From assembly GCA_039915685.1 (NCBI GenBank), contig JBDSMU010000169.1, positions 1-62,056 on the forward strand: a stretch of DNA of 62,056 nt, given 5' to 3'. Both the position numbers and the translations under genes were made by a program. Below are positions 13,724 to 54,708 of this stretch, piece by piece. Source of the stretch: Gemmatimonadales bacterium. Lineage in GTDB: Bacteria > Gemmatimonadota > Gemmatimonadetes > Gemmatimonadales > GWC2-71-9. The notes below the pieces were generated by a model that saw only the letters and a program-made list of their open reading frames with translations, ran no database searches and was not told the DNA's origin. Position 1 is the stretch's first letter, and the number at the start of each line of letters is the position of its first letter.

Positions 13724-14788
13724 ATGACCCCAACCCAGCCGTTCTCCGTCTCGCCTGCGATCCGGGCTGCCATCAATGTGGCGCAGCGGGGTAGCGGGCT
13801 CGACGAAACCGCGGCGCACGCTGCAGTGCTTGAGATGCTCGACGGCACGGCTGATCCCGCGCTGACCGAGGCGCTGTTGGTGGCCCTCCGGGACAAAGGG
13901 GAGACCGCGGCGGAACTTGCCGGGGCCGCGCGGGCACTCCGCGAAACCATGGAGCGTGTTGACCACCCTGACCCCGACTCGTTGGTCGACACCTGCGGCA
14001 CCGGTGGAGGGTTGGTCACGACGCTGAACATCTCCACGGCGGCGGCGTTCGTGGTTGCCGGCGCCGGAATTACCGTCGCGAAGCACGGCAACCGGTCGTT
14101 CACGTCGCGGTCGGGATCGGCCGACGTACTGGAGGCGATGGGCGTCGCGATCGATGGCAACCCAGCTCGGGCCGGGAAAATCCTGCGTGACATTGGGATC
14201 GCATTCCTCTTCGCGCCGACCCACCATCCCGCGATGCGCCACGTGGCCCCCGTGCGTCGCAAGCTGGGGACGTCCACCATCATGAATCTCGTCGGTCCGC
14301 TCGCTAATCCGGCCGGGGCGACACGTCAGGTGATCGGCGTTGCCGACCCAAGTAGGGGTGCGCTGATGGCGGCGGCGCTGGCCCGCTTGGGTACTCCCCA
14401 CGCGATCGTCGTCCACGGAGTGGACGGCTTGGATGAAATAGCCCCCAGGGGCGAGACCCGTGTTTGGGAAGTGCGGTCGGGGAATGTCCGAGAGTGGTCG
14501 ATCGTGGCGCAGACCCTCGGCTTCAAGGTCGACTCGCTTGCCGGACTCGCCGGGGGCGAGCCCGCTGAGAACGCCGCAGCGATTGTCCATTTGTTCGAGC
14601 GACCCGACCAAGCTGCGGAGGCGGTGCTCGCAGCTGTTGTACTGAACGCTGCTGGAGCAATCATGGTGAGCGGCACCGCGCGGTCGATGAACGAGGCAGT
14701 GGAAATCGCTCGCGAGGTGCTCGACTCCGGTCGCGCGCTGGCTGCATTGGAGGCGCTTCGCCGCGCGTCAGTCAGTATTTCCGAATGA
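13724..14788 (+). CDS. trpD: Anthranilate phosphoribosyltransferase
   Basis: DTCGTGG, NISTAAAF, KHGNRSFTSRSGSADVLE and GLDEI. Confidence 0.96.
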   Translation: MTPTQPFSVSPAIRAAINVAQRGSGLDETAAHAAVLEMLDGTADPALTEALLVALRDKGETAAELAGAARALRETMERVDHPDPDSLVDTCGTGGGLVTTLNISTAAAFVVAGAGITVAKHGNRSFTSRSGSADVLEAMGVAIDGNPARAGKILRDIGIAFLFAPTHHPAMRHVAPVRRKLGTSTIMNLVGPLANPAGATRQVIGVADPSRGALMAAALARLGTPHAIVVHGVDGLDEIAPRGETRVWEVRSGNVREWSIVAQTLGFKVDSLAGLAGGEPAENAAAIVHLFERPDQAAEAVLAAVVLNAAGAIMVSGTARSMNEAVEIAREVLDSGRALAALEALRRASVSISE

Positions 14789-15380
14789 CGCCCACGACGA
14801 TGCCCTGGATCAGGACGTCGCTTTCCTGATAGCGCAGCGGTCGCATCTCGGTGTTGGCTGGCTGAAGGCGGATCCAGCCACCCGGCTCGCGGTAGAACCG
14901 CTTGACGGTGGCTTCTGCTCCGTTGACGAGTGCAATGACCATTTCGCCGTTGTCGGCACTCTCCCGCCCGTTGACCACCACCAGGTCGCCGTCCAGGATC
15001 TGCTCATCGATCATCGACGCCCCACGAACCCGCAGCGCATAGTTGGCGCCGCGCCGGGGCAGCATCGCGTCGGGCACGGCAACCACATCGCCGGTCATGA
15101 CCGACTCGATCGGATAGCCGGCCGCGACCGTTCCGAGCAGCGGGATTTCGGTCGCTCCGGTGAGGCCGCGGGCGGGAAGAACCTCGATGGCCCGGCTCTC
15201 GTTGTAGCTGCGACGGATGTAGCCCTTGCGCTCGAGATTGGTCAGGTGCTCGTGCACCGTGGCCAACGATTGGTACCCGAACTTTTCGGCAATTTCCTCG
15301 AAGCTCGGTGCGTAGCCGTGATCGGCGATAACTTCCCCGAGGAAATCGAGGATTTCGCGCTGCTTTCGGGTCAGGGGCAC
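14772..15380 (-). CDS. lexA: SOS repressor LexA
   Basis: LTRKQREILDF winged HTH, VAAG cleavage site, GASM Ser and ATVKR Lys. GTG start gives MPLTRKQ. Confidence 0.96.
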   Translation of the reverse strand: MPLTRKQREILDFLGEVIADHGYAPSFEEIAEKFGYQSLATVHEHLTNLERKGYIRRSYNESRAIEVLPARGLTGATEIPLLGTVAAGYPIESVMTGDVVAVPDAMLPRRGANYALRVRGASMIDEQILDGDLVVVNGRESADNGEMVIALVNGAEATVKRFYREPGGWIRLQPANTEMRPLRYQESDVLIQGIVVGVIRKY

Positions 15381-15400: not shown

Positions 15401-15440
15401 CGAAGAGAACCCGAATAAACGTACCCGAAGGTAACCCGAA
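15401..15440. promoter_or_regulatory. Candidate LexA operators: two CGAA-N7-CGAA direct-repeat pairs
   Basis: CGAA at 15401/15412 and 15426/15437. ACCCGAA occurs three times in the 67-bp lexA-trpC gap. Confidence 0.55.
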
Positions 15441-16239: not shown

Positions 16240-16873
16240 CGCCAAGGTGTGCGGCCTTACCCGTCCGGAAGACGCGGCGCTGGCGGTTGCGTCGGGCGCC
16301 GCATACCTCGGCGTGATCTTCGCGGGCGGACCTCGCCAAGTGGATAGTGACCGCGCCCGGACCATTGTCGCCGCCGCCGACGGCGTCCCCGTACTTGGTG
16401 TCTTCGGAATGCAACCCACCCGGACGATCCTCGAGGTGATCAGGTCGGCGGGGTTGGCCGGCGCTCAGTTGCATGGCGACCACGGTCCCGACGTGTCCAA
16501 GCAACTTGTAGATGCCGGCATGGTCATTTGGCACGTGGCGCGCTTCAACGATACGTCGACCCTGCGAATTGAGATCGGCCGAATCGGTGTCGGGTTCGAA
16601 CCAATCCTCATTGAACCCCGATCGTCGGGCGGGGGCGGTCAGGGAATTGTCCTTCCGTTGGACCTTGCAGTCGCCGCCCGCGAGGCATTCCACCAACGTC
16701 GGCTCGTCCTGGCCGGCGGCCTGCACCCTGGGAATGTCGCCGAGGCGATCCGGCTCGTTGGTCCGGACATCGTCGATGTAAGTTCCGGGGTCGAATTGGC
16801 GCCGGGCATCAAGGATCCGATCCGGCTTGTTGCCTTCCTGGAGGCTGTGCGTGACGCTCGTTCTGCCGCGTGA
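16229..16873 (+). CDS. trpF: Phosphoribosylanthranilate isomerase
   Basis: KVCGLTR, QLHG, LAGGL and VDVSSGVE...PGIKD. Confidence 0.95.
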
Positions 16874-18053
16874 AACCGCCGTTGATGGCCGATTTGGCCC
16901 TTACGGTGGGCGCTACGTTCCCGAGACTCTTGTGGCGGCGTTGGACGACCTCACCGCCCTCTACGACGCGGCCCGCGACGACCACGCCTTCTGGGACGAG
17001 TTTCACCGCATCCTTCGCGACTTTGTCGGACGCCCATCCGCGCTGTCGGAGGCGCCCCGTTTCAGCGCGACCGTCGGCGCTCGAGTGCTTCTCAAGCGGG
17101 AGGACCTGAACCACACCGGCGCCCACAAGATCAACAATGCGGTGGGGCAGGTGTTGCTGGCGCAGCGGATGGGGAAGCGTCGGATCATCGCCGAAACCGG
17201 GGCGGGCCAGCACGGCGTGGCAACGGCGACGGTGTGCGCCCGTTTCGGGCTGGAGTGCGTCGTCTACATGGGCTCCGAGGATGTGGCGCGCCAGGCGCCG
17301 AACGTCTACCGGATGCAACTCCTTGGCGCCACCGTGATTCCAGTCACCTCTGGCACACGGACACTCAAGGATGCGACCAACGAGGCGCTCCGCGATTGGG
17401 TCAGCAACGTGCCGGACACCCATTACATCATCGGCTCCGTCGTGGGCCCCGATCCATTCCCTCGCATGGTTCGCGACTTCCAATCGGTCATTGGTGACGA
17501 GGCGCGTCGGCAAGTGATCGAGCGCACTGGCGCGCTCCCTGAGACGGTGGTCGCGTGCGTCGGTGGAGGCTCGAATGCGATGGGGATCTTCGCCGGCTTC
17601 ATCGACGACAGCGAGGTCGAACTGGTGGGCGTCGAAGCGGCCGGTGAGGGCATTGATACTGCGGCCCACAGCGCGACACTCACCCTCGGGCGGCCCGGCG
17701 TGCTGCACGGGTCACTCTCGTACCTGTTGCAGGATGCCGATGGGCAGGTGCTTCCCGCGCATTCGGTATCGGCGGGCCTGGACTATCCTGGCGTGGGCCC
17801 CGAACACAGCTGGATGCGGGACACCGGACGCGTCAAGTATGCATCGGCAGGTGATCGTGACGCGCTCGAGGCGTTTCGCAGCTTCACGCGCATGGAGGGG
17901 ATCATTCCCGCGCTCGAGACATCGCATGCAATCGCATGGATCACAGCCCAATCGGGTAAATGGGCGCCTGACCAGGTCGTGTTGCTCTGCCTGAGTGGCC
18001 GGGGCGACAAGGATGTCGCCCACGTCGCGGCACTTGATGGACCGCCCGCGTGA
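16851..18053 (+). CDS. trpB: Tryptophan synthase beta chain
   Basis: [37 protein letters not shown] and LSGRGDKD. Confidence 0.98.
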
Positions 18054-19735
18054 GCGCCCCGGTGCACGCATCCTCTGATCTGGACGTTCGCGTTGTGGAG
18101 GAACTTCTTCGCACGCTCACGAAGGGCCAGCGTGCGCTGCAGATGTACCTCCCGAACAATCCCGTGTACCAGCGTGCGATGGAGGCGCTGGTCGAAGCGT
18201 TCACGCCGGTATGGAATGTCACCGGTCGGCTTGTGCTGGAGATCCACGAACAGCACATCGACTGGGAGGGCGTCGCCGTCTATCAGCAGCCGAACTCGGG
18301 CGAAGGGCTCCCGTGGCAACTCTACACCGACGGGTTGCGGCGCCTCACGCTGCTCCCCGGCGTCGAGTCTGAGGAGATCATCCGACTCCTTCACGTGGTC
18401 AACCGCGCCCGTCTGCTGCCGGTCGATGCAGCCGATGACCTGCTCACGCTGCTGTGGGAGCAGGAGTTCGTGCTGATCACATACGCATTCGTCGAGGTGA
18501 TCGGCGAGGGAACCGAGTTCCTCCAGGAAAGCGAGGCGCGCGATCCACCGCCCGAGCCCGGGGAGGCACGACGGGAGGTGGATGCCGCCCGCGGAACACC
18601 AACGCACCCGGGGCTGGTCGACCTCGCCGATTTCGATGCGACGCCGTACTTCCTTGATGAGGCGGAGACTCGCCTGATCAGGTCGGAGCTGGAGGACGAG
18701 TACCGGCGCGACTATCGGACCAATGCCATCGACGCGCTCATGGATATTTTGGAGGCGCAGCGCGAGCCGGCGGTGCGTCACGAAGCCGTCTCCCTCCTTG
18801 AAGATGTGCTCCCCGCGCAGCTCGCGATCGGCGGGTTCAGGGCCGTCGCCCGCATCCTGCGCGAATTGCGGGTGATCGCCGCCCGCGCGCCGGGCCTCGA
18901 CCAGGAACTGCACACTGCCGTGCTCTCGTTTGAGGAGCGGCTGAGCCAACCCGAGATTTTAGAGCAACTTTTCCGCGCGCTCGAGGATGCGATCGGTCGT
19001 CCTGCCGATGAGGACGTGAGCGAGGTGATGCGGGAACTCAAGCCGTCGGCGCTCCCGACGATCCTCACGCACCTGGGTCGAACGCTGAACCCCGATGTCC
19101 GTCGTGCGCTTGAGCCGAGCCTTGAGGGCCTCGCGCGGGCCGGTCCGGCCGCGCTGTCCGACGTGCTCGACAACGGTCCGCCTGAGGCGCTCGATCCAGC
19201 CATCGGGTTGGCCGCCCGCTTGGGCATGACCGCGCTCGTGCCCGCCATCATCGGACACTACAAGTCAGGCGGCGTGGCAGTCCGACTCACTGCCATCACC
19301 GCTCTTGGTGGGTTCGGCACCCCGACAGCGATCGCGACGGTGGAGGAGGCACTGGGCGATTCCGATCGAACGGTGCGACAGGCTGCGCTCGCCGTGTTGC
19401 AGCAGCGGGGCGGTTCAGGCGGCATGGTGCGTCGGCTGGAGGGCCTTCTCTTTGCCGAAACCGACGGTGGATGGGATCGGCTGGAACGGCGTACGCTGTT
19501 CGAGGCCTACGGAAGTCTCGCCGGCGACGCCGCCCTGCCGAAGATCCGCGAACTGCTTGAGCCGCGGGGCCTCTTCCGCCGCCGCGCGCATCCCGACGTG
19601 CGCGCTTGCGCACTGTTCGGGCTTGGCAAGGTGCGTTCGTTCGATGCGCGCATGGTCGTTGACGCGTACACCAACGACAAGGAACCAGTGGTGCGAAGCG
19701 CCGCCAACAGCGTTCTGCGAGACTGGATTCCATGA
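18050..19735 (+). CDS. HEAT-repeat-containing protein with an unnamed N-terminal domain
   Basis: C-terminal HEAT-like repeats ([38 protein letters not shown]). Overlaps the trpB stop (GTGA). Confidence 0.8.
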
Positions 19736-21174
19736 CGTCATCCGCCGCCGAAGACGGCGTCCTGCGCCAGGCGGGTCGGTCACTGCTGGTGTCGATTCAC
19801 GGCGCGCAGCGGGCGATCAAGCTTTACCCGACCGACAACACCACGGTCGAGCGCGCCCTCGACGAACTGCAGGCCCACACCATCAGCATCGTGCGCCTCG
19901 AGGGATCGGTTGAAATCCGACTCTCCGGCGATTTCCTCTTCATCAACCAGATCCGCCTGCGGCTAGGCCTCGACAACTTCGCCGCGTTCAGCGGATTCGT
20001 GTCGTTGATGCGCTACTTCGGGATCGGGCTTCTTCGAATCGATGACGGCATCACCCGGCGCGAGTGGCAGCTCTGGTTGTCGATGCTGGGCGCCACAACA
20101 CCGGACGTCGATCCCGAGGAGCGCCTCGACGCGCTGCGTCAGCGGATGCAGCAGGCCGACATTATCCGTCTCTGGATCGACGCCGCCGGCGACACCGAGG
20201 AGGAAGATCGGGTGGGCGACGAGGCGCTGGAGAGCGCCAAACGAACCTATTCGCATGGCGTGGCGGCTGCGCGGGATGTCGTTCAGGGCGTTCGTATGGG
20301 CCGCACGCCCAGTGTGCGGCGAATCAAGCGGGCCATCCAACTCATTGTCGATCAGGTTCTCGAGAATGAACTGTCGATCACGGGATTGACAACACTTCGC
20401 GCCTACGACGAGTACACCTTCACCCATTCGGTCAACGTCAGCATCTTTGCGGTGGCACTCGGCAAGCGGCTCGGCTTTGATCGCCTGCAGCTCTATGATC
20501 TCGGCCTCGCCGCCATGATGCATGACATCGGCAAGGCGCGGCTCGATCTCGCGCTGCTCAACAAGGAGTCGTCGCTCGACGAGCAGGAATGGCGGATGAT
20601 GCAGGCCCACCCCTGGCTCGGCACACTGACCCTCTTCAAGATGCGGGAAGGCGACGAGCTGCCGTGGCGGGCAATCCTGGCGGCGCACGAACACCACATG
20701 AAGATCGATCTCACCGGGTATCCGCGGGCCATCCGACCTCGCCGGCTCGGCCTCTTCACCCGCTTGATCTCGGTGGCCGACGGCTATGATGCGGCCACGA
20801 CGCGCCGGGCTTACCAGACCGAACCACTCGAGCCCGACTCGGTGTTGAAGGAAATGTGGATGAATGCCGCGCGGGGCTATGACCCCGTCCTCGTCAAGGC
20901 ACTCATCAACCTGCTCGGGATCTATCCGGTTGGAACATGCGTAATCCTCGACACCTTCGAGGTCGCGATCGTCGCCGGACCGAGCCCCGACCAGCAATTG
21001 CTTCACCGGCCGCTGGTACGCATTGCGGTTTCCGCGGACGGCATCCTGTTGGCGCTCCCCGGTGAGCTTGTCGACCTGTCGGTCGCCGACCCGGGCGGGA
21101 ATCACGCGCGAACGATCGTCAAGGTCACCGCTCCGGAACGCTACGGACTCGTCGTCGGCCATTATTTTGTCTGA
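19732..21174 (+). CDS. HD-GYP domain protein (putative cyclic di-nucleotide phosphodiesterase)
   Basis: YTFTHSVNV, MHDIGK, HP, HEHH, TGYP and RLISVADGYDA...RRAY motifs. Confidence 0.9.
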   Translation: MTSSAAEDGVLRQAGRSLLVSIHGAQRAIKLYPTDNTTVERALDELQAHTISIVRLEGSVEIRLSGDFLFINQIRLRLGLDNFAAFSGFVSLMRYFGIGLLRIDDGITRREWQLWLSMLGATTPDVDPEERLDALRQRMQQADIIRLWIDAAGDTEEEDRVGDEALESAKRTYSHGVAAARDVVQGVRMGRTPSVRRIKRAIQLIVDQVLENELSITGLTTLRAYDEYTFTHSVNVSIFAVALGKRLGFDRLQLYDLGLAAMMHDIGKARLDLALLNKESSLDEQEWRMMQAHPWLGTLTLFKMREGDELPWRAILAAHEHHMKIDLTGYPRAIRPRRLGLFTRLISVADGYDAATTRRAYQTEPLEPDSVLKEMWMNAARGYDPVLVKALINLLGIYPVGTCVILDTFEVAIVAGPSPDQQLLHRPLVRIAVSADGILLALPGELVDLSVADPGGNHARTIVKVTAPERYGLVVGHYFV

Positions 21175-21964
21175 CACAGTGGTGGCTGAGTCGGCCATCG
21201 AGCGTGCGTGGAATGCATCGCGCGCCGAGTGCCGGACAGCTCTCATCCCCTACCTGACGGCGGGGTTTCCGACGGTTGTGGATTCGCGGGCGATGCTCGA
21301 GGCATCAGCGGAATGGTCCGATATCATTGAAGTCGGTGTACCGTTCAGTGATCCCCTCGCTGATGGCCCCACTATCCAGGCATCTACGTTCCGCGCACTC
21401 GAGAACGGGATGACGCTGCCGCGGACCCTTGAGCTCGTTGCCGATGCTGCGGTACAGCGACCGGTTGTTCTCTTTTCCTACCTCAACCCGATCCTGCAAT
21501 ACGGTGCCGAACGCCTGGTACGGGACGCCGCGAGCATCGGCGTGCGAGGCATCCTCCTCACTGACCTTCCCGTGGGCGGCGATGCGGCGCTGGAGGAGTC
21601 CCTCGGCGGCGGTCCACTGAACCTCATCCGTTTGGTGGCACCGACCACGACGGGTGAGCGATTGCAGCGGTCCGTGGACGGCGCCCGGGGCTTTATTTAT
21701 CTCGTCGCACGGCTTGGGGTGACCGGCGCGTCGAATGCGGTCGACGCGGGCCTCGAAGCCTCCATTGCCAGGGTCCGCGCGGCGACCCCCCTTCCCATTG
21801 CGGTGGGATTCGGGATCTCGAATCCCGAACAGGCGGCATCGGTGGCACGACACGCCGACGGAGTGGTCGTAGGCAGTGCGCTGGTGGACATTCTTGGTCG
21901 GGAGGGTGTGGCGGCCTCGGCACGCTTCCTGGCTGGACTTCGTGCCGCGCTGGGCCCCACGTGA
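21167..21964 (+). CDS. trpA: Tryptophan synthase alpha chain
   Basis: LIPYLTAGFP, IEVGVPFSDPLADGPTIQ, YLNP and AVGFGIS. Start uncertain (TTG at 21167 or GTG about 21179). Confidence 0.96.
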   Translation: MSDTVVAESAIERAWNASRAECRTALIPYLTAGFPTVVDSRAMLEASAEWSDIIEVGVPFSDPLADGPTIQASTFRALENGMTLPRTLELVADAAVQRPVVLFSYLNPILQYGAERLVRDAASIGVRGILLTDLPVGGDAALEESLGGGPLNLIRLVAPTTTGERLQRSVDGARGFIYLVARLGVTGASNAVDAGLEASIARVRAATPLPIAVGFGISNPEQAASVARHADGVVVGSALVDILGREGVAASARFLAGLRAALGPT

Positions 21965-54624: not shown

Positions 54625-54708
54625 GCCGGGGTGGCGAAACTGGTAGACGCGAACGACTCAAAATCGTTTGCCGGCAACGGCTTGCGGGTTCGAATCCCGC
54701 CCTCGGCA
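54625..54708 (+). tRNA. tRNA-Leu(CAA), CCA not encoded
   Basis: Acceptor GCCGGGG/CCTCGGC, anticodon arm AACGA-CTCAAAA-TCGTT, long variable arm and GTTCGAATCC T-loop. Confidence 0.96.

Follow-up and report, generated by a model that had tools for sequence, protein, structure and literature searches.

Two adjacent forward-strand genes on contig JBDSMU010000169.1 of a Gemmatimonadales bacterium (assembly GCA_039915685.1) encode a HEAT-repeat protein and an HD-GYP protein, which share an N-terminal domain, here called X. The window analysed spans positions 1 to 62,056 of this contig, counted in nucleotides (nt). In our overall reading, held with about even confidence, the pair is a cyclic-dinucleotide phosphodiesterase, predicted to prefer cyclic GMP-AMP (cGAMP), with a HEAT partner likely bound to it through paired X domains. 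The X-HEAT gene (18050..19735, from GTG to TGA) encodes 561 amino acids (aa), and the X-HD-GYP gene (19732..21174, from ATG to TGA) encodes 480 aa. Both open reading frames (ORFs) had been proposed as a two-protein signalling module in a first-pass annotation. Their coordinates and strand were reproduced, and the peptides quoted there were present in both proteins.

A shared and unnamed N-terminal domain

The likeness of the two N-termini, previously seen by eye, proved to be solid homology. Pairwise BLASTP detected it weakly (29 aa, 34%, E 0.001). HHalign comparison of close-homologue alignments gave 74% (E 2.8e-5), with at most 0.83% in 30 column-shuffled controls and 0.16% in one reversed control. 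Diverse alignments, with 41 versus 45 sequences, raised the match to 97.75% (E 1.3e-12, 132 columns). The shared domain is alpha/beta and ~140 aa long, rather than the ~110 aa first suggested. The HEAT-type copy occupies residues 10-150 (18077..18499, forward strand), with R28, Y33, N36-N-P38, D94-G-x-R97 and D129-D-L-x-T-x-L-W136 conserved. The enzyme-type copy occupies residues ~5-150 (19744..20181, forward strand), with L31-Y-P33, N36, N72, R75-L-R77 and G99 conserved. Motif residues common to both types are Y-x-x-N and G. AlphaFold models of the two proteins, with predicted local distance difference test (pLDDT) values of 91.5 and 90.5, have the same order of helices (H) and strands (E) in the first 150 residues: H-H-E-E-E-H-E-H-H-E.

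As the first-pass annotation had supposed, Pfam and NCBIfam families do not cover X. Nothing scored above the Pfam cut-off over the N-terminus of either protein, and in Pfam plus NCBIfam no family matched more than one of 61 X members. The best match of the X profile among PDB sequences was a designed protein (E 0.0033, 36 positions), which is not credible, and the ESM Atlas neighbours at 0.89-0.92 were only unnamed clusters from Thermodesulfobacteriota and Gemmatimonadota. Among 1.84 billion representatives, the profile matched 9,582 protein clusters at E ≤0.001 and 3,547 at 1e-10. Judged by sequence profiles, since the fold searches took in X only with the rest of the chain, neither X nor its obligate HEAT partner has an entry in the libraries searched.

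DUF3391 was considered as an identity for X, after an ESM Atlas lead at 0.76, and rejected. The Pfam score of 14.8 bits fell below the cut-off of 27.8, and genuine members reached 99-108 bits. This sub-threshold match was restricted to the linker, residues 150-197, and the X profiles missed two true DUF3391 enzymes. The linker, catalytic and C-terminal parts of the enzyme are homologous to those of DUF3391 enzymes.

Behind X, the HEAT protein has a low-confidence linker (residues ~160-200) and a HEAT-like helical solenoid (~204-558), as delimited by Pfam and the AlphaFold model. HEAT_2 was found above the Pfam cut-off at residues 369-450 (E 9e-17). Tandem helical hairpins forming a solenoid were seen in the model, with fold matches over ~212-561.

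Gene coupling and distribution

The co-occurrence of the two genes across genomes, offered by the annotation as a check, was strict. The HEAT gene lay directly upstream in 44/44 Gemmatimonadota loci found via the enzyme N-terminus. The X-HD-GYP gene lay directly downstream in 80/80 further Gemmatimonadota loci picked by HEAT, and 79 of these HEAT genes were intact. Homologues carried the source labels Gemmatimonadales or Gemmatimonadota. With one query, the HEAT N-terminus was found in 219/301 genomes of the phylum, a tally that takes in one unpublished genome (G157), and in 125/125 genomes of the family. Among 47 hand-picked genomes (34 HEAT-positive and 13 HEAT-negative, with kin that are not independent), the same 34 had both genes and, by the queries used, 13 had neither. 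Paralogues were duplicated as pairs (x3 in G224, x2 in G257, G085, G300 and G142). The annotation had named missing homology, a known family and missing co-occurrence as grounds for dropping the idea; homology, an unnamed domain and strict co-occurrence were found.

X was also present in 38/121 genomes of a second phylum (centre G301). In 40 regions around X matches there, all 25 X-HD genes stood behind a HEAT ORF, of which 23 were intact X-HEAT genes, yet 12 of 37 X-HEAT genes had no HD gene behind them. By this gene order, the enzyme needs its HEAT partner, and not the reverse. The gene behind some solo X-HEAT genes encodes a histidine kinase (L186) or an AAA_5 ATPase (L199, L200), which are possible alternative outputs. 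The plasmid collection had no X-HEAT match, and an RNA holder was not among the entries listed.

The same genome carries a second, divergent pair (G000:C108:43609-46670; L119, L120, L132). It has a 4-nt overlap and is partly degenerate: the first Asp of the DxxD stretch is gone from its HD domain, and the C-terminal beta domain is missing. Two other loci were interrupted. A ~10 kb prophage-like element (integrase, terminase-like, portal-like) lies inside an X-HEAT gene (L112:4443-14928, G221), and a Mutator-family transposase splits an X-HD-GYP gene at a locus where the HEAT gene is in two frames (L100:3385-4752, G300).

Fusions, cyclases and two kinds of X

The architectures of X proteins were drawn from the best 150 of the 9,582 matching clusters. 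At least three clusters (P0335, P0352, P0366) were single-chain X-HEAT-X-HD fusions, one of them named Deltaproteobacteria. X-X-HEAT proteins were found as well, one named Acidobacteria. A third architecture, GGDEF-AAA_16 (STAND-like)-X-X-HEAT, was ~1,400 aa long (P0245, P0300, P0347 and P0351; loci L107, L175, L180 and L184). The layout resembles that of NLRs, with a diguanylate cyclase at the head, and L184 has a single X. In L175 a fragmented GGDEF-AAA-X cyclase stands immediately upstream of a pair.

In a tree of 176 X domains from both phyla, 78/78 HEAT-type copies fell on one side and 68/71 enzyme-type copies on the other, with weak support for the deepest node. The HEAT/enzyme label changed three times on this tree, compared with at least 42 times in 200 shuffles. 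The tandem X copies of the cyclases grouped with the enzyme type. Within a locus, the two X copies were ~10-28% identical (24 loci). On this evidence X split early into two complementary kinds, HEAT-type and enzyme-type. Since the two copies are old and distinct subtypes, any pairing would be heterotypic. For the two-protein module first proposed, a functional unit is supported by co-occurrence, fusions and tandem copies. Its two X copies are divergent subtypes rather than a symmetric pair.

Active site and predicted substrate of the HD-GYP enzyme

According to Pfam, AlphaFold and fold search, the enzyme consists of X, long linker helices, the HD-GYP domain and a small beta C-terminal domain. 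No REC, GAF or PAS domain was found by Pfam scan, in agreement with the first reading. The linker helices (residues 155-225, 20194..20406, forward strand) resemble the pre-HD-GYP helices of Bd1817/DUF3391-type enzymes. The catalytic domain (residues 226-395, 20407..20916, forward strand) was matched by HD_5 at residues 226-386, and the top fold matches (Foldseek, VIA) were all HD-GYP structures.

All metal ligands are kept. Among 140 orthologues, H232 was conserved in 139, H264, D265, H293, H321 and H322 in 140, and D350 in 137; G329-Y-P331 was conserved in all 140. The intact ligands and GYP motif read from the single sequence therefore hold in 137-140 of 140 orthologues. Lysines after the HD, in the region of PmGH K235, were also conserved (K268 in 138/140, K278 in at least 90%). 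Tyr228 takes the place of PmGH Glu185 (132/140 orthologues), where the trinuclear class has Glu or Asp. The metal site is, as read from the alignment, of the binuclear type, with Tyr replacing the third-metal Glu.

The canonical guanine-binding motif RxxK is replaced by RxxQ (R359-A-Y-Q362, 20806..20817, forward strand; aligned to PmGH, 4mcw). At the position of PmGH K317, orthologues had Q in 130/140, N in 1/140 and K or R in 5/140. The basic residue of the canonical cyclic di-GMP (c-di-GMP) class is thus lacking, with Q362 in its place, and the RxxQ/N signature of the cGAMP-specific class is present.

The first-pass annotation had left the substrate open, and RxxQ tilts it towards cGAMP. As reported in the available part of 10.1101/600031, RxxQ makes PmxA cGAMP-selective, Q518R switches it from cGAMP to c-di-GMP, and RxxQ/N occurs in only 4.69% of HD-GYPs. 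Galperin and Chou, in the accessible portion of 10.1101/2021.11.05.467447, agree on the RxxQ motif. We tentatively predict, with slightly less than even confidence, that the enzyme prefers cGAMP. Activity on both cGAMP and c-di-GMP is possible but doubtful, and activity on c-di-GMP only would be unlikely.

Several observations weigh against a cGAMP preference. In the screen of six RxxQ/N enzymes described in the part of 10.1101/600031 at hand, three proved selective, another two hydrolysed both substrates, and the last was inactive. cGAMP synthases of the Hypr GGDEF type carry a serine signature (PMC6456294, available part). None of the six GGDEF genes of the present genome, which is 86% complete, has this serine, and no SMODS match was found in it. 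The strict Ser pattern occurred in 21/251 genomes of the class and 18/45 in the family, and all 23 matches had GGDE[FY]. It occurred in 0/5 genomes of the same genus and 0/26 of family f2, where the pair is near-universal. Other X-HD lineages mostly have RxxR (46/57), the X-HD enzymes of the second phylum have Q in only 6/26, and the GGDEF-AAA-X cyclases had the canonical Asp in 15/15 checked. A cGAMP preference would be a fair bet for this lineage, but not for the whole X system.

Candidate synthases and related enzymes were noted on the way. Ser-type GGDEFs with the Hypr signature (L328 in G069, a MASE1-GGDEF, and L341-L363) are candidate cGAMP synthases. One of the six GGDEF genes of this genome has Asn at the Hypr position and an intact GGDEF, and the Asn pattern occurred in 69/251 genomes of the class and 0/26 f2 genomes. 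The Asn-type GGDEF of this genome (G000:C83:10760-12445, L124) is fused to a 4Fe-4S/FeFe-hydrogenase-like sensor. The genome also has a second RxxQ HD-GYP (G000:C92:31310-32398, L127), with a receiver-like N-terminus by eye. Two loci (L173 in G310, L174 in G399) hold tandem X-HEAT/X-HD-GYP pairs, in which one enzyme is RxxQ and the other RxxR; their sequences suggest paired substrate variants. In a literature search for cGAMP or GGDEF in Gemmatimonadota, outside subscription journals, the phylum was named by none of the papers listed (12 of 123).

How the two proteins may work together

The HEAT and HD-GYP genes very probably form a functional unit, and the two proteins probably form a physical complex. 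Whether their contact would be mainly through X-X is an evenly balanced question. In other HD-GYP enzymes, input domains are thought to pass a change to the catalytic dimer. Starting from the homology, intact site, coupling, fusions and subtype split described above, a scheme for binding, interface and regulation can be proposed. X of the HEAT protein would dock on X of the enzyme, and the change would reach the catalytic dimer through the long helix after X. Sensing or localisation would fall to the HEAT solenoid, and the HEAT partner would set the activity or location of the enzyme. With enzyme-type X on GGDEF-AAA cyclases, the same adaptor logic may wire both synthesis and breakdown.

Three points weigh on this scheme. 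The coevolution analysis (mutual information with average product correction, MI-APC; 140 paired rows, effective number Meff 123) gave a top z of 6.5 versus 5.3-6.2 for shuffled pairing, and was uninformative. The fusions keep the gene order and could have arisen by read-through between neighbours. Contact could also run from the HEAT solenoid to the enzyme. In that case a complex would form, but the solenoid would grip X, the linker or the catalytic domain, each X would be its own input or self-dimerising, and the shared domain would be a relic of an old duplication. We consider this rather unlikely. It would agree with the surface conservation of the HEAT protein, where the C-terminal repeats are among the most conserved surfaces (20 columns at least 90% conserved in 401-561 versus 22 in X), with the direct joining of the HEAT C-terminus to enzyme-type X in the fusions, and with the different conserved residues kept by the two X types at their low mutual identity. 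However, every intact Gemmatimonadota pair seen keeps both X copies, and tandem X-X inside single proteins fits X-X contact.

The proteins could also serve the same pathway without touching, if each X bound a common ligand or landmark (a third protein, the pole, a nucleotide) and the outcome was co-localisation or co-regulation. Solo X-HEAT genes, of which some neighbour a gene for a histidine kinase or AAA_5 ATPase, and the presence of X on cyclases would suit such an arrangement, and the shared Y-x-x-N and G residues could make one binding site. Yet co-localisation would not require such strict adjacency, translational overlap and duplication in pairs, and the two-subtype split fits complementary surfaces better than one ligand. 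A common ligand or landmark is distinctly unlikely. It is very improbable, finally, that the pair is a device tied to tryptophan, which would sense TrpA/TrpB or indole, or that its synteny in a housekeeping operon is merely inherited, with no functional link between its two genes. The pair does lie between trpB and trpA, with overlapping codons, in 62/83 loci with lexA and trpC/B/A all in view. It is also kept in loci where the trp genes are gone (L085, L088, L106, L114) and in paralogous loci, and the pairs of the second phylum show no trp context among the partners seen. Because the pair persists without trp genes, a trp-specific role was rejected. Synteny by chance is opposed by the joint absence in 13/13 negative genomes and by the fusions. 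Docking of X on X is the reading carried forward here.

Operon context and a predicted LexA box

The pair lies in an operon with the order trpC-trpF-trpB-HEAT-HD-GYP-trpA. trpB (16827..18053, forward strand; Pfam PALP) overlaps the HEAT start, and the stop/start overlaps at trpB/HEAT and at HEAT/HD-GYP are both 4 nt. trpA (21179..21964, forward strand; Pfam Trp_syntA) has a probable GTG start 4 nt past the HD-GYP stop. Upstream, lexA (14772..15380, reverse strand; TIGR00498, 203 bits) is divergent from the trpC...trpA operon. The lexA/trpC spacer holds two TTCG-N7-TTCG direct-repeat sites (15401-15415 and 15426-15440, reverse strand), which are likely LexA boxes.

The sites recur. lexA was divergent from the operon of the pair in 66/83 loci, including four without trp genes, and TTCG-N7-TTCG was present in 65/66 of these upstream regions, twice or more in 59. 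The direct-repeat form is TTCGG-N6-TTCGG. With a matrix from other genomes, the top nine sites in this genome were the two window sites and sites before uvrB, recA, a Pol IV-like gene, uup, darG and two unnamed ORFs. Sites outside the window were on contigs C50, C181, C126, C99, C171 and C161 of G000 (L394-L399). Direct-repeat LexA boxes are known elsewhere, according to the accessible part of PMC7739468. Going by these sequences, the class very likely uses TTCG-N7-TTCG as its LexA box. A literature search for a Gemmatimonad LexA box, outside subscription journals, gave no paper naming the phylum.

The last box ends at most 40 nt from the trpC start in 57/61 loci, and 8 nt from it here. A bound LexA could therefore repress the operon of the pair as well. 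No box lay within 500 nt of ten pairs that lacked lexA or trpB in view. The boxes may serve lexA alone, and control of the HEAT/HD-GYP pair by the SOS response, as predicted from box position, is somewhat doubtful.

Other scans of regulatory elements gave little. The sigma-70 promoter scan found no site scoring above shuffled sequence. The search for c-di-GMP-I riboswitches had zero matches, with controls equally without match, and the only Rfam match in the window was a tRNA gene (54625-54708).

Implications

As a rule, the input domain that switches an HD-GYP enzyme, such as REC, GAF or PAS, lies on its own chain. If the proposed scheme is true, a HEAT partner acting in trans and coupled via a shared adaptor would be a new mode of HD-GYP control, and thousands of protein clusters that lack annotation would gain a named domain. 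From the conserved RxxQ, a cGAMP phosphodiesterase open to testing is predicted for a major soil phylum, and the LexA box would offer a first clue to the conditions under which the module acts. In the widest version, X would be a large undescribed bacterial adaptor family in complementary halves, coupling HEAT sensors to writers (GGDEF-STAND) and erasers (HD-GYP). The Gemmatimonadetes eraser would then be a near-universal, LexA-controlled cGAMP phosphodiesterase, with DNA damage resetting cGAMP. This version is a long shot. If true, it would mean cGAMP signalling across a class for which we found no report, via non-canonical Ser-type and perhaps Asn-type GGDEF synthases.

Comparison with known systems

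The catalytic domain belongs to a known type. A related layout is that of the Bd1817 family of DUF3391-HD-GYP enzymes (Bd1817, 3TM8; PA4108; VC2497), which likewise has long helices joining the input to the HD-GYP domain. The N-terminal 150 aa differ: X starts with two long helices, whereas DUF3391 of the Bd1817 family starts with four strands. The available texts on that family mention no partner gene. PmGH (GAF-HD-GYP) and RpfG (REC-HD-GYP) have GAF or REC inputs, which are lacking here, and the present enzyme has Tyr instead of Glu185 and RxxQ instead of RxxK.

In its active site, the enzyme resembles the cGAMP-specific phosphodiesterases (GAPs: PmxA, Bd2325, Gmet_3476), with RxxQ at the position of PmGH R314/K317 and an intact metal site. 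As described in the accessible text, PmxA is a membrane Cache-HAMP-HD-GYP protein, whereas the present enzyme is a soluble protein that carries X and has a partner of its own. In Myxococcus and Bdellovibrio, GAPs are paired with Hypr GGDEF synthases, but the search of this genome gave no serine-type synthase. The main text of Galperin and Chou (10.1101/2021.11.05.467447), as distinct from its Table 3 and Figure S1, has no mention of HEAT, Gemmatimonadota or Acidobacteria in the part available. A literature search, outside subscription journals and bioRxiv supplements, found no description of a HEAT/HD-GYP pair; for HD-GYP in Gemmatimonadetes it led to work on ComFB, which has no bearing on the pair.

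For X itself, a parallel can be drawn with effector-associated domains (EADs) and death-fold adaptors. EADs are presented in the available part of Kaur et al. 2020 (PMC7159879) as small non-enzymatic domains, with copies on a scaffold and on the enzyme of an adjacent gene, and with a proposed coupling role. X also sits in a STAND-like AAA_16 protein that combines GGDEF and HEAT repeats, which adds to this likeness. In the same source, however, adjacent EAD copies are closest relatives, whereas those of X separate deeply according to the partner they sit on. The pair is also conserved, mostly single-copy and placed in a housekeeping operon, unlike a fast-changing conflict system. By this analogy, X may work like an EAD without being one.

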